Of a DNA stretch of 64,000 nt, positions 40,733 through 44,276 are shown piece after piece; position 1 is the stretch's first letter, and each line of letters starts with the position of its first letter. The notes under the pieces were generated by a model that had not been told where the DNA came from, ran no database searches, and saw only the letters and a program-made list of their open reading frames with translations. This stretch comes from an uncultured Actinomycetota bacterium. GTDB lineage: Bacteria; Actinomycetota; Actinomycetes; Actinomycetales; CAVURS01. The translations under genes were made by a program, and so were the position numbers. Location of the stretch: positions 362,113-426,112 of the forward strand of contig CAWCHK010000014.1 in NCBI GenBank assembly GCA_963795385.1, given 5' to 3'.

Positions 40733-41458
40733 CTACCTGTCGTCGCTCTTGCCCGAGCCTCCGCCGTCGTCCGAGCCGCCCTTGCCCGAGCCCCCGCCCG
40801 ACTGACCCGACCCGCCCGAACCCGAGCCGCCCGAACCGGATCCGCCCGACCCCGAGCCGCCGGACCCCGAGCCGCCCGACCCCGAGCCGCCCGACCCCGA
40901 GCCGCCACGGTTGGTGCCGCCGCCGTGGTCGTCCGGCGACGTCGCTGATGGGCGCGCCGTCGCGGGCGCCGTGCTCCCGGATCCCGACCCGGACCCGGAC
41001 CCGGAGTCCTGGGTCACCACGGCCCGCCCGGCCACGCACGTGGCGCGGACCTCGACCGACCGACGACCGGACCGCGTGAACTCCATGGTCAGCGTCTTCG
41101 GCCCGCCCGGGGTGTACTCGACCTTCCAGCCCTGGGCCGGGATCGCGCTCTGCAGCGAGACCGCGCCGCCCGGCCCACAGGTCGCGGCCACGCGCCCGCC
41201 CACGGTGGTGAGCGCGGACGGCCCGCCCGGCGTCGCGGCCGTGCTGGTCGCCGTCGACGTCGCGGCGCCAGCCCCACCGGACAGTCGCGGCCCGGACGAA
41301 CCCAGCAACGAGACGCCGGCCCGGTCCACCACCAGCCAGCCGGCCGTCGCGGTGACGGCCACCACCGCACACCAACCCAGCACGACCAACGCCGCTGCGA
41401 GGCCACGACGGGTGGGCGCGCCCGGGCTCGTCAGCTCGGGACTGCCGATCTCAGGCAT
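40733..41458 (-). CDS. Membrane-anchored hypothetical protein with small Cys-pair ectodomain and (GGSGS)n tail
   Basis: 241 aa with one TM (LAAALVVLGWCAVVAVTATAGWLVV), a ~70-aa domain containing 2 Cys, then GSGSGSGS...GGSGSGGSGSGGSGSGGSGSGGSGSGGSGSGGSGQSGGGSGKGGSDDGGGSGKSDDR. Divergent from the response regulator. Confidence 0.6.
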   Translation of the reverse strand: MPEIGSPELTSPGAPTRRGLAAALVVLGWCAVVAVTATAGWLVVDRAGVSLLGSSGPRLSGGAGAATSTATSTAATPGGPSALTTVGGRVAATCGPGGAVSLQSAIPAQGWKVEYTPGGPKTLTMEFTRSGRRSVEVRATCVAGRAVVTQDSGSGSGSGSGSTAPATARPSATSPDDHGGGTNRGGSGSGGSGSGGSGSGGSGSGGSGSGGSGSGGSGQSGGGSGKGGSDDGGGSGKSDDR

Positions 41459-41581
41459 GCCGTCCAGCCTCTCTCATCGGTTGCACTCGCGGGTCAGGTT
41501 CGCGCCGGCGTACCGGTGACCGGTGCCGTGCACCGGCCGAATGCCCTCGTGAACCCTTCGGCTCGGCGTAGGTTTCCCTTC

Positions 41582-42271
41582 ATGGCGACCGTCCTCGTGG
41601 TCGAAGACGACCCCGCCATCCGGACCGGCCTGGTCCGGGCGCTCACCGACCGCGGCCATGCCGTGAGCTCGGTCGGTTCGGGCATGGAGGCGCTCCAGGC
41701 CGTCGTCGACCAGCCGGTGGACATCGTGCTGCTCGACCTGGGCCTGCCCGATGTCGACGGGCAGCAGGTGCTCAGCATGCTGCGCGCCGTCAGCGCCGTA
41801 CCGGTCGTCGTGGTGAGCGCGCGGGACCGCGATGCGGACGTCGTGGCCGCGCTGGACTCCGGCGCGGACGACTACGTCGTGAAGCCGGTCGGGGCCGAGC
41901 AGCTGGACGCCCGGGTGCGGGCCGTCCTGCGGCGGGGCGCTCCCGCCGTGGCGGACCGAGAGGTCGTCGTCGGCGCGCTGAGCCTGGACCCGAAGGCCCG
42001 CACCGCCGTCCTCGAGGGCCGCGACCTGGACCTCAGCCGCAAGGAGTTCGACCTGCTCCTGGCGCTGGCCGAGCGGGCCGGTGAGGTCGTCTCCAAGCGC
42101 GAGCTGCTGGCCGAGGTCTGGCGGCAGCCCTACGGCGGCGCCGAGCGCACCGTCGACGTCCACCTCTCCTGGCTGCGGCGCAAGCTCGGCGAGAGCGCCG
42201 ACGAGCCGCGCTACCTGCACAGCGTGTGGGGCGTCGGTATCCGGCTCGCGCCGCCGGCCGAGGCCGGCTAG
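41582..42271 (+). CDS. OmpR-family response regulator
   Basis: 229 aa. Receiver (VLVVEDDPAI...DIVLLDLGLPDVDG...DDYVVKP) plus winged-helix (RKEFDLLLALAERAGEVVSKRELLAEVW). Confidence 0.93.
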   Translation: MATVLVVEDDPAIRTGLVRALTDRGHAVSSVGSGMEALQAVVDQPVDIVLLDLGLPDVDGQQVLSMLRAVSAVPVVVVSARDRDADVVAALDSGADDYVVKPVGAEQLDARVRAVLRRGAPAVADREVVVGALSLDPKARTAVLEGRDLDLSRKEFDLLLALAERAGEVVSKRELLAEVWRQPYGGAERTVDVHLSWLRRKLGESADEPRYLHSVWGVGIRLAPPAEAG

Positions 42272-42277
42272 CCCGGC

Positions 42278-43609
42278 ATGCGCCGCAACCTCACCCTGCT
42301 CGTGGCGGCGAGCACCTCGGCCGTCGTCCTGGCACTGGTCATCCCGCTGGCCCTGCTGGTCGGCCGCCTGGCCCAGGACCGGGCCGTCGCGGCCGCCACC
42401 CAGCAGGCCCAGTCGGTCGCCCTCCTGATCGCGACCGGCACCTCCCTGACCCAGCTCGAGGACGTCCTCTCCCTCAGCGACCAGCGCACCGGGCTGCACA
42501 CCAGCGTCGTACCACCCACGGGTGCCGCCCTCGGGCCGGCCGTGCCCGCAACCGAGCTGACGCGAGCCCGCGGGGGCGAGGCCTTCACCAGCTTCCCCTC
42601 CGCGGGCGCGGACGGCGCCGAGGTCCTCCTGCCCGTCGCGGCGCAGGCCGGCACGAGCGTGGTCCGGGTAGGCGTGACCCGTGACGCCCTGACCCAGGGT
42701 GTCGCCCGGGCGCGAATCCTGTTGGTGGCACTGGGCCTTGGCCTCGTCGTCGTATCGCTCGCAGCCGCGGTCGCCCTCGCCCGCCGGGTCACCGCGCCGC
42801 TCGTCGCGGTCGCCGAGGTCGCCGAGGGCCTCAGGCGCGGGCAGCTGCAGCGCCGGGTGCGTCCCGGTGGGCCTCCGGAGGTCCAAGAGGTCGGTACGGC
42901 GCTGAACCAGCTGGCCGGCCGGATCGGGGAGCTGCTGCAGGCCGAGCGCGAGGCGGCAGCCGACCTGTCGCACCGCCTGCGCACACCGGTCACGGCCCTG
43001 CGCCTGGCGGTGGACACGACGGCTGACCCGGCCGAGCGAGCCCGGCTGCGCGAGCACCTGGATCGTCTGGAGGGCACCGTCGACGCCGTCGTACGCCAGG
43101 GTCGCCAGCCGGCGACCACCGCTCGGGGGAGCGAGGAGCCAGGCGGGGCGGTGCGGGCGGACCTGTCCGGCATCGTGTCCGAGCGGGTGGCGTTCTGGTC
43201 CGCGCTGGCCGAGGATCAGGGGCGAGCCGTGGACGTCGCGATCGAGCCGGGAGCCTGGGTGCAGGCGGACCCGCAGGACCTGATCGACCTGGTGGACGTG
43301 TTGCTGGACAACGTGTTCGCCCACACCGACGTCGGTGTCGGCCTGGCGGTCACGGTGGCGCGTACGCCGTTCCACGTCACCCTCGTCGTGGAGGACGGCG
43401 GCCCCGGCCTTCCCCCCGCCGACCGGCTCGGACGAGGCCGCAGCTCGGCCGGCTCGACCGGCCTGGGGCTGGACATCGTGCGGCGGATCGCCGAGGCCTC
43501 TGGGGCGGAGCTGGTGCTGGGCTCCGGGAACCTGGGCTCCGGGATGGCAGACGCCGGCGGCGCGCGGGTGAGCCTGCGCTGGCCGGACCTGGGTCCGCCC
43601 GCCGCCTGA
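42278..43609 (+). CDS. Sensor histidine kinase (2 TM, HAMP, HisKA, HATPase_c)
   Basis: 443 aa. H-box LSHRLRTPVTAL, N-box DVLLDNVFAH, G-box GSTGLGLDIV. Confidence 0.92.
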   Translation: MRRNLTLLVAASTSAVVLALVIPLALLVGRLAQDRAVAAATQQAQSVALLIATGTSLTQLEDVLSLSDQRTGLHTSVVPPTGAALGPAVPATELTRARGGEAFTSFPSAGADGAEVLLPVAAQAGTSVVRVGVTRDALTQGVARARILLVALGLGLVVVSLAAAVALARRVTAPLVAVAEVAEGLRRGQLQRRVRPGGPPEVQEVGTALNQLAGRIGELLQAEREAAADLSHRLRTPVTALRLAVDTTADPAERARLREHLDRLEGTVDAVVRQGRQPATTARGSEEPGGAVRADLSGIVSERVAFWSALAEDQGRAVDVAIEPGAWVQADPQDLIDLVDVLLDNVFAHTDVGVGLAVTVARTPFHVTLVVEDGGPGLPPADRLGRGRSSAGSTGLGLDIVRRIAEASGAELVLGSGNLGSGMADAGGARVSLRWPDLGPPAA

Positions 43610-43679
43610 CACCCGCGCGCCGTCCGTCGTCATCGACCGTTCCTCCTCATCGACCGCTGTCCTCGGGTGGTCCGCGGGC

Positions 43680-44276
43680 TCAGCCGTCGTGTCCGCTCCG
43701 GCCGGAGCCGCTGCCGGACCCGCCGCCGTGCCCGCTGTTGTCGTCACCCTGGTCGTGGCCACTGCCACTGCCGCTGTTGCCTCCGTGGTCGTCGCCCTTG
43801 TCGTGACCCCGACCATCCCGGCCGCGGTCGTCGCCGGGCTCGGCGTGGCGGCCGCGGTCGTCGCCGGGCTCCGCGTGGCGGCCACGGTCGTCGCCGGGCT
43901 CCGCGTGGCGGCCACGGTCGTCGCCGGGCTCCGCGTGCTTGCCCCGGTCGTCGCCCGGCTCGGCGTGCTTCCCGCCGTTGCCCCGGTCGTCGCCGGGCTC
44001 CGCGTGCTGGCCCCGGTCGTCGCCCGGCTCGGCGTGCTTCCCGCCGTTGCCCCGGTCGTCGCCGGGCTCCGCGTGCTGGCCCCGGTCGTCGCCGGGTTCG
44101 ACGGCGGGCTTGGACGTGGTCGACGGCGTGCTCGTCGGGGTGCTCGTGGAGCTGACCGTCGTGAGGGCGGTGCGGTCGTCGGCGCCCGAGCTCGCCGACG
44201 CGGCGTACCCGGTAGCGACGACCAGCAACGCCGCCGTGCCGGCGCTGGCCAGGACCTTCTTGGCGCGTGCGTTCAT
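43680..44276 (-). CDS. Secreted His/Asp/Glu-rich repeat protein (9 x EPGDDRG)
   Basis: 198 aa with a signal peptide (MNARAKKVLASAGTAALLVVATGYAASA) and an S/T-rich linker. Nine copies of (H)AEPGDDRG follow with K/R/Q/NGGK spacers, then a GHDKGDDHGGNSGSGSGHDQGDDNSGHGGGSGSGSG tail. Confidence 0.7.
   Translation of the reverse strand: MNARAKKVLASAGTAALLVVATGYAASASSGADDRTALTTVSSTSTPTSTPSTTSKPAVEPGDDRGQHAEPGDDRGNGGKHAEPGDDRGQHAEPGDDRGNGGKHAEPGDDRGKHAEPGDDRGRHAEPGDDRGRHAEPGDDRGRHAEPGDDRGRDGRGHDKGDDHGGNSGSGSGHDQGDDNSGHGGGSGSGSGRSGHDG
43821..44099. repeat. Coding tandem repeat, 30-nt unit (39-nt variant with NGG insertion)
   Basis: Near-identical DNA units such as gtcgtcgccgggctccgcgtggcggccacg are repeated back-to-back (aa 60-152 of the protein). 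Confidence 0.85.

Follow-up and report, generated by a model that had tools for sequence, protein, structure and literature searches.

Two-component systems with extracytoplasmic partners are a known concept. In the CpxP-CpxAR and ZraP-ZraSR systems of Enterobacteria, a divergent gene encodes an extracytoplasmic accessory protein that is induced by the response regulator and feeds back on the kinase, and ZraP binds Zn; small modulators of kinases are MzrA for EnvZ, SafA and MgrB for PhoQ and, among actinobacterial lipoproteins, CseA for CseC and LpqB for MtrB. The context of ZraPSR has been described (PMC12314577), as have HbpS-SenS-SenR of Streptomyces, a 'three-component' system with a secreted accessory protein as modulator of its kinase (PMC4991794), and SilE, a disordered metal sponge under two-component control (PMC5008109). 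Here we analyze a 64-kb stretch of high-GC actinobacterial DNA (70-79% GC), hereafter the window, in which the genes of a response regulator and a histidine kinase (hereafter abbreviated as RR and HK) are flanked by two genes for exported accessory proteins, acc1 and acc2. On balance, and with a little better than even confidence, we read these four genes as a conserved actinomycete signalling module of four components.

Gene content and recurrence of the locus

An earlier reading of the letters alone, hereafter the sequence-only reading, had listed four open reading frames (ORFs), all of which are present exactly where it placed them:

40733-41458, minus strand: acc1, 241 amino acids (ORF list, third-position GC 0.905, homologues, alignments A1 and A5, AlphaFold2 model)
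41582-42271, plus strand: RR, response regulator of the OmpR/PhoB family, 229 amino acids (Pfam)
42278-43609, plus strand: HK, histidine kinase, 443 amino acids (Pfam, hydrophobic segments)
43680-44276, minus strand: acc2, secreted repeat protein, 198 amino acids (ORF list, third-position GC, homologues)

Because spurious ORFs are frequent at such GC content, acc1 and acc2 were checked as genes. Their third-position GC is 0.905 and 0.93, respectively, and both minus-strand frames are real genes since homologues exist; high-GC artefacts or wrong-strand ORFs are ruled out by third-position GC, homologues in the same frame, the fold model and a conserved ribosome-binding site (RBS) and promoter.

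The regulator contains the Response_reg and Trans_reg_C domains (PF00072, 96 bits, and PF00486, 84 bits, both above the cut-offs) and thus belongs to the OmpR/PhoB family, as the sequence-only reading had it. Its best solved relative is PrrA of Mycobacterium tuberculosis (148 bits), while MtrA and RegX3 score 136 bits each, and its recognition helix, RTVDVHLSWLRRKLGE, is identical in every orthologue save the frameshifted copy of locus L001. (The latter, at 7168-7917 on the minus strand of that locus, appears disrupted in its C-terminal half, the alignment breaking after residue 130, which is probably an assembly error.) HK contains the HAMP, HisKA and HATPase_c domains (PF00672, PF00512 and PF02518, all above the cut-offs), and hydrophobic segments at residues ~12-25 and ~149-167 flank an extracellular loop of ~115 residues that matches no family; it is therefore a class I transmembrane HAMP kinase with two transmembrane (TM) segments, again as first read. 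TM1 is near-invariant among 26 orthologues, CpxA is the best match to the core among solved kinases, and an identical protein (P0296) is encoded on a 1.02-Mb NCBI/ENA contig.

Curated cut-offs exclude the pair from three described groups. Against the heavy-metal sensor families TIGR01386 and TIGR01387, HK scores 75.2 bits for a cut-off of 292.55 and RR 146.7 for a cut-off of 279.2, and the kinase is not a known metal sensor. The scores also lie below the equivalog cut-offs of MtrAB (MtrA 170 vs 300, MtrB 58 vs 450) and of CseBC (CseB 167 vs 350, CseC 30 vs 700).

The co-occurrence of the accessory genes with orthologous RR-HK pairs in other genomes, the lack of which the sequence-only reading had named as a possible refutation, turned out in its favour, for both genes recur with such pairs elsewhere. 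When sampling started from acc1, RR and HK were divergently adjacent in six of seven distinct metagenomic contexts (L001, the P0026 contigs, L002, L004, L023 and L024), the flanks of which differ: energy-coupling factor (ECF) transporter and major facilitator superfamily (MFS) genes, acetyltransferase/Clp_N, ctaA, proS-rpsP-rimM, dnaK or ABC. A genome scan for the Geodermatophilaceae subfamily then gave 16 acc1 loci of Geodermatophilus and Blastococcus, 15 of which have RR and HK directly upstream of acc1; their regulators score 264-285 bits against the window RR and their kinases ~212-240 bits against the window HK in 14 loci, the kinase of L021 being split by a frameshift into two weaker fragments. 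Sampling that started from HK found orthologues at ~50% identity in Angustibacter and in metagenome-assembled genomes (MAGs) of Phycicoccus/Dermatophilaceae, and an acc1-family gene lies divergently upstream of RR in all three cases (Angustibacter sp. McL0619, a Phycicoccus MAG and a further MAG). The linkage of acc1 thus holds in more than 20 loci with varied flanks, and the arrangement exceeds chance because it recurs in differing genomic contexts. The remaining Geodermatophilaceae locus, L019, is considered below; there acc1 borders directly on an amidohydrolase gene whose usual place is after the kinase, an arrangement that resembles a clean deletion of the two-component genes.

In the window, L001, L023, L024, L029, L030 and L031, the gene convergent to HK encodes a protein that has a signal peptide and a high content of Asp, His and Gly. 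Orthologues of acc2 with 3-6 repeat units have been found in L001, L023, L024 and L026/L027, and those of the first three loci converge on HK; the position of acc2 is taken in Angustibacter by a secreted protein with GDDHG repeats, in the Phycicoccus MAG by a signal-peptide protein of 163 amino acids with EATHDAE repeats and the end ...GSDG, and in L031 by a similar acidic, His-containing gene. In L026 and L027 the acc2 orthologue stands immediately upstream of acc1, with the two-component system neither between them nor nearby, an adjacency from which it follows that acc1 and acc2 are linked to each other directly. The conserved core of the locus is thus acc1-RR-HK, with acc2 as a widespread but optional fourth member that is linked to acc1 and to the kinase. 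The range of the module covers the uncultured clade of the window, Angustibacter, Phycicoccus-like Micrococcales and Geodermatophilaceae.

The two accessory proteins

The following features of the accessory proteins are used in the comparisons below:

41006-41218, minus strand: extracytoplasmic beta domain of acc1 (residues 81-151), with seven strands and two near-invariant Cys, C94 and C141
40919-40933, minus strand: DDHGG motif, acc1 residues 176-180, a conserved island within the variable linker
40806-40906, minus strand: 15-bp DNA tandem repeat (6.7 copies, 90% matches) encoding the (GGSGS)n tail of acc1
43819-44100, minus strand: DNA tandem array encoding the EPGDDRG units of acc2 (30 bp x 8.7 copies; 69 bp x 2.8 copies, 96% matches)

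The product of acc1 is a type-II single-pass membrane protein. An alignment of 24 homologues shows, in order, a short Arg-rich N-terminus, the TM helix (helix 18-48 of the AlphaFold2 model), a juxtamembrane motif, a variable linker, the beta domain, DDHGG and a Gly/Ser/Asp tail; the juxtamembrane stretch is invariant and reads WLVVDRAGxSLLG in the clade of the window. Sequence and model together bear out the single TM segment, the two-Cys ectodomain and the (GGSGS)n tail of the sequence-only reading. In the beta domain, of ~70 amino acids, C94, W111, E126, F127, E136 and C141 are near-invariant and the predicted local confidence (pLDDT) exceeds 90 in both AlphaFold2 runs, namely of the whole protein and of the isolated domain; from their conservation and extracytoplasmic location, C94 and C141 would form a disulfide. 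Altogether 28 homologues of acc1 were found. In the 22 sequences of alignment A5, each of the residues D176, D177, H178, G179 and G180 is either invariant or kept in at least 90%, and two homologues (P0022 and P0024) read EPGDDHGGG at this position. Since DDHGG is the core of the acc2 repeat unit, the latter reading implies that acc1 and acc2 share one motif.

The domain is widespread: searched against 1.84 billion proteins, its profile matches 1,909 cluster representatives at E <= 1e-3, and with the profile trimmed the window acc1 scores 103 bits (E 1e-30). Of the 147 best representatives, 113 are single-domain proteins, of which 104 have at least two Cys, and tails of at least 10 residues are net acidic in 56 of 64; Cys-free multi-domain forms also exist. 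No Pfam or NCBIfam family was matched by acc1 and 60 members of its family, Foldseek found nothing in the PDB at E < 0.1 with either the full-length or the domain-only model, and a sequence profile search of the PDB went no further than a weak match (E 0.07) to an Ig-like S-layer domain. The homologue in Angustibacter is annotated as 'hypothetical protein', and no matches to plasmids were obtained by tblastn with acc1 or acc2. (L031 has a second paralogue of acc1 type at 2139-2642 on its minus strand, 1 kb from the first with a short-chain dehydrogenase gene between them; its 167 residues include a TM helix, a Pro/Ser/Thr linker and the two-Cys beta domain, without the Gly-rich tail.)

The product of acc2 begins with a signal peptide that has an ASA-type site at its end; there follow a linker of Ser/Thr/Pro, nine (H)AEPGDDRG units and, lastly, a tail of Gly/Ser/Asp/His. 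The count of nine EPGDDRG units after the signal peptide agrees with the sequence-only reading, eight of them being preceded by HA; the units are separated by R/K. Each unit contributes His, Glu and two Asp together with one or two basic residues, so that its net charge is about -1. The protein is probably disordered. It is one of at least 326 such proteins, small, secreted and mostly metagenomic, with 110-260 residues, that carry HAEPGDD[RH]G units in tandem and have ...GHGSDD or ...GHGSDG as their typical end; a few of these relatives (P0031 and P0092) are fused to a PepSY domain (PF03413). PepSY is absent from the window acc2, which matches no Pfam family at E <= 0.01 and no NCBIfam model and has no relative in the PDB by sequence search, and a full-text search of a literature library retrieved no paper containing the repeat motif. 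The sequence-only reading had recognised neither accessory protein as a characterised family, and neither has a Pfam or NCBIfam model. Its claim that both are acidic and rich in His is right for acc2, which lacks Met and Cys and in its mature form has 28 Asp, 9 Glu and 13 His and an isoelectric point (pI) of 5.05, and wrong for acc1, which has a pI of 9.35 (9.8 in the beta domain) and a single His, while its tail is 72% Gly+Ser with 6 Asp among 90 residues.

Genes of acc2 type are misannotated in public genomes, as at 6302-6874 on the minus strand of L029 (Angustibacter sp. McL0619, CP188257), where the public call is a 101-residue Ala/Val-rich ORF on the opposite strand, and at 5269-5880 on the plus strand of L001, where the kinase call is over-extended to 578 residues across the acc2 orthologue. 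A collection of 15 billion proteins contains the kinase of the window and lacks its acc1 and acc2 sequences. The repeat is also met in L006 (6001-8675, plus strand), in which an EPGDD-repeat protein of 109 residues (P0085) is followed by a 531-residue protein without Pfam domains and a response regulator of LuxR type; given this locus, the repeat family may also be associated with another class of two-component system.

Operator-like repeats and intergenic regions

In the Geodermatophilaceae, the aligned acc1|RR intergenic regions contain three direct repeats, TCTTGACcccg TCTTGGGgtgg TCTTAACCC, with 11-bp phasing (boxes at 0, 11 and 22), from which the search pattern CTTGAC-N5-CTTRRS was derived. 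The regulatory features considered are:

44370-44386, minus strand: operator-like direct repeat CTTGAC-gaaga-CTTAGG with 11-bp phasing, the sole exact match in the window
44346-44351, minus strand: TATCGT, candidate -10-like hexamer (TAnnnT) 17 nt downstream of TTAGGA; orthologues have TAGnGC there
44277-44336, minus strand: acc2 mRNA leader with a two-tier hairpin predicted by consensus fold, ending at the AGGAG RBS (44287-44291)
41459-41581, strand not assigned: divergent acc1|RR intergenic region with a -10-like hexamer, the acc1 RBS and a palindrome

The pattern has 17 exact matches in the 388 kb of the window and fetched loci, and none in each of 30 simulated sets, a count that reflects conservation and not independent events inasmuch as many of the sites are homologous promoters. 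Every match precedes either an acc2-like gene or, in loci of the Geodermatophilaceae type, acc1. Sites upstream of acc2-like genes occur in the window, L001, L024, L026, L027, L029 and L031, and with one mismatch in L030, and the boxes are the only invariant block across seven aligned acc2 upstream regions. Independent evidence for the element comes from its presence in two non-homologous promoter types, those of acc1 and acc2. A shared operator is moreover expected because the recognition helix of RR is identical in all intact orthologues.

The repeat of the window lies 94-110 nt upstream of the acc2 ATG, in a promoter composed of CTTGAC (44386-44381), CTTAGG (44375-44370), a 17-nt spacer, TATCGT (44351-44346), AGGAG (44291-44287) and the ATG (44276), with the second box containing the -35-like TTAGGA. 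At least two direct repeats in 11-bp phasing that overlap the -35 region or take its place are the arrangement of activated promoters of PhoB type (class II), and the acc2 promoter conforms to it in its sequence geometry. The search for a regulator site that the sequence-only reading had proposed thus gave a candidate upstream of 44276 and none upstream of 41458. The predicted hairpin of the acc2 leader could be a translational control element; it shows three compensatory pairs in only four orthologous leaders, which are too few to judge. A terminator hairpin was sought between HK and acc2 and none was found.

The acc1|RR intergenic region of the window has a GAGG RBS before acc1, the palindrome CCGGTGC-acg-GCACCGG and a -10-like hexamer, TAGGTT, 7 nt before the ATG of RR (41562-41581, plus strand). 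A TAnnnT hexamer (TAGGTT, TAACGT or TAGCGT) stands ~7 nt before the RR start in all lineages (L023, L024, L030 and the Geodermatophilaceae), with no Shine-Dalgarno sequence, which suggests that the RR-HK transcript is leaderless.

Beyond the four genes, an ArsR-type regulator and an MFS_3 (EntS-like) exporter are encoded at 38775-40672 on the plus strand, between dnaK and acc1, as they are in L001; this pair appears to be inserted and to lie outside the module because in L023 acc1 directly abuts dnaK-grpE-dnaJ-hspR. On the acc2 side, a thiamine pyrophosphate (TPP) riboswitch (47370-47492, minus strand; 62 bits, above the gathering score) heads an operon for an ECF transporter with an S component (PF09819) and an ATPase/T fusion (44433-46496). 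ORF 46652-47512 is long enough for its 5' part to overlap the riboswitch, and the S-component gene must therefore really start below ~47360. The ECF transporter is a thiamine-related neighbour of acc2 and nothing else.

Possible functions and comparison with known systems

In the explanation that we favour, the HAMP kinase and the OmpR-type regulator form the core of the module. The acc1 protein most likely touches the kinase within the membrane or right beside it, where its exceptionally conserved TM helix and juxtamembrane motif would make the contact, and it would modulate or supply signal perception; we see in it the kinase's membrane partner because these two elements are its most conserved part, TM1 of HK is near-invariant and the genes are tightly linked. 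The phosphorylated regulator would bind the two 11-bp-phased repeats that overlap the -35 region of acc2 and switch this gene on, acc2 being a putative direct output of the regulator because operator-like repeats precede it. Outside the cell, the acc2 protein would most plausibly bind cations or metals, or else the ectodomain of acc1, and its linkage to acc1 and the motif they have in common suggest that it probably feeds back on the system, closing a loop whose logic would compare with that of CpxP/CpxAR, ZraP/ZraSR or SilE/SilRS.

Several observations weigh against this explanation. The pair is not obligatory for acc1, for in Geodermatophilus sp. DSM 45219 (L019, 6900-7560) acc1 is kept and RR-HK are absent; nor is acc2 obligatory, as no acc2-like gene was found beside HK in the Geodermatophilaceae loci or in L002, and EPGDD-repeat proteins also occur in contexts unrelated to the module (L005 and L006). 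The HK loop is uninformative on the signal, since in the 26 orthologues neither His nor Cys nor Met is conserved there and an ExxE-type patch is absent. As for the operator, besides the homology among many of its sites, the chance expectation for the pattern within the window is 0.58 when up to one mismatch is allowed, and the acc1|RR intergenic region of the window contains no match even with up to three mismatches.

The sequence-only reading had proposed a metal- or envelope-sensing module. The module is sustained by co-occurrence, and its metal part is weakened by the composition of acc1, the heavy-metal family scores and the HK loop. In its full form, a module for sensing divalent metals in which both exported proteins buffer ions together with the kinase loop, this explanation is possible yet doubtful. 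The acidic and His-containing composition of mature acc2 and of each of its units speaks for it, and its equivalents in Angustibacter and Phycicoccus, which differ in sequence, retain the Asp/His/Gly composition and the ...GHGSDD or ...GSDG end; that distant equivalents keep composition and not sequence points to a role, such as cation binding, in which composition is what counts. There is also the precedent of SilE as a disordered metal sponge under two-component control (PMC5008109), and metal binding by acc2 is plausible from its composition. However, one or two basic residues per unit bring its net charge to only about -1, acc1 is basic with one His and a mostly Gly/Ser tail, and both HK and RR fall far under the TIGR01386/TIGR01387 cut-offs. 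The loop lacks the residues listed above, and the ArsR-type regulator and MFS exporter next door, which would fit metal sensing, are not kept with the module in L023, L030 and L031. A generic module for envelope stress or desiccation, in which disordered, Gly-rich polymers of hydrophilin type, namely acc2 and the acc1 tail, would protect the envelope or keep it hydrated, is unlikely: it draws on their extreme Gly/Ser/Asp content and predicted disorder, on the soil and rock actinomycete lineages concerned (Geodermatophilaceae and Angustibacter) and on CpxA as the best solved match to the HK core, but leaves the conservation of the DDHGG/EPGDD motif and the His content unexplained. The heat-shock operon dnaK-grpE-dnaJ-hspR, which adjoins the locus in the window, L023 and L029, is not adjacent in the Geodermatophilaceae, L030 and L031, and no chaperone or protease target was identified.

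It is decidedly unlikely that acc2 is itself the signal, namely a secreted multivalent EPGDD[HR]G ligand induced by RR, intact or cut into decapeptides at the Arg/Lys between units, which would be recognised by the acc1 beta domain in competition with its own tethered DDHGG and would set kinase activity in an autocrine or quorum-like loop. The motif common to the acc1 tail and the acc2 units would be accounted for in this way, as would the adjacency of acc1 and acc2 even without the two-component system, the R/K between units, and the fast evolution of copy number (9, 6, 4-5 and 3 units, including the window); the direct repeat upstream of acc2 resembles, moreover, those of autoinduced peptide-pheromone genes beside their two-component system. 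Yet the Phycicoccus and Angustibacter equivalents lack the exact motif, the Geodermatophilaceae are entirely without acc2, and no gene for a processing protease or exporter is conserved at the locus. Most improbable of all is that the accessory genes are incidental neighbours, acc2 being the last gene of the thiamine ECF operon with its TPP riboswitch and acc1 an unrelated membrane protein. It is true that the ECF ATPase/T-component gene, on the same strand, ends 156 bp upstream of acc2, that a TPP riboswitch heads its operon and that L001, L029 and L031 likewise have an ECF operon next door; however, acc2 has its own conserved promoter-like region and RBS between the ECF stop codon and its ATG, acc2-like genes stay beside HK or acc1 without the ECF operon in L026 and L030, and a GNAT-like gene stands between acc2 and its upstream neighbour in L001 and L024. 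Its own upstream region and the ECF-free contexts led us to reject membership of acc2 in the ECF operon, and the linkage of acc1 in more than 20 loci with varied flanks also speaks against coincidence.

The four-component module that we favour can now be compared with the systems introduced above, and judged by sequence none of the CpxP, ZraP, HbpS and SilE/PcoE systems is homologous to it. Its logic resembles that of CpxP and ZraP, with an accessory gene adjoining and divergent from the RR-HK operon. Whereas CpxP, ZraP and Spy are soluble helical proteins of the LTXXQ family, acc1 is membrane-anchored and all-beta and acc2 is a low-complexity repeat protein; neither belongs to the LTXXQ/CpxP-ZraP-Spy family, as both lack a Pfam family at E <= 0.01 and the acc1 ectodomain is all-beta. 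ZraR, furthermore, is a regulator of NtrC type, whereas the regulator here is of OmpR type and the host is a Gram-positive actinomycete. HbpS, whose system is also similar in logic, is a haem-binding, folded oligomer unrelated in sequence, in contrast to the two accessory proteins found here, one anchored in the membrane and the other disordered. The small membrane modulators have a single TM pass or a lipid anchor and tune a kinase with two TM segments; acc1 is likewise anchored in the membrane, and its conserved TM helix suggests a similar contact. There is no homology, and acc1 adds the two-Cys beta domain and a disordered tail. The kinase PrrB of M. tuberculosis has the same architecture of two TM segments and HAMP, but the margin of PrrA over MtrA and RegX3 is small and orthology is not established; no neighbours of acc1 or acc2 type are known beside prrAB. 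The fusions of EPGDD[HR]G repeats to PepSY share with acc2 the signal peptide, the tandem units and the tail, acc2 lacking the PepSY domain.

Against this background, the novelty lies in the two accessory families, in the arrangement of four genes and in the predicted operator. Both families are missing from Pfam and NCBIfam, and public genomes often overlook their genes or place them on the wrong strand. The predicted operator, together with a predicted first regulon member, makes this orphan actinomycete signalling system directly testable. If acc2 were a ligand, the module would be a peptide circuit of a new type, made up of two protein families hitherto undescribed. Its likeness to SilE/PcoE is that of a small, exported, disordered protein rich in metal-ligand residues that adjoins, and would be controlled by, an OmpR-type system. 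This likeness is one of composition, with no sequence similarity in Pfam and PDB searches, and the ligands differ, SilE/PcoE having His/Met motifs for Ag(I)/Cu(I) and no tandem decapeptide array and acc2 offering His, Glu and Asp in place of Met and Cys. If acc2 does bind metals, it would be a Gram-positive counterpart of the sponges of SilE/PcoE type.

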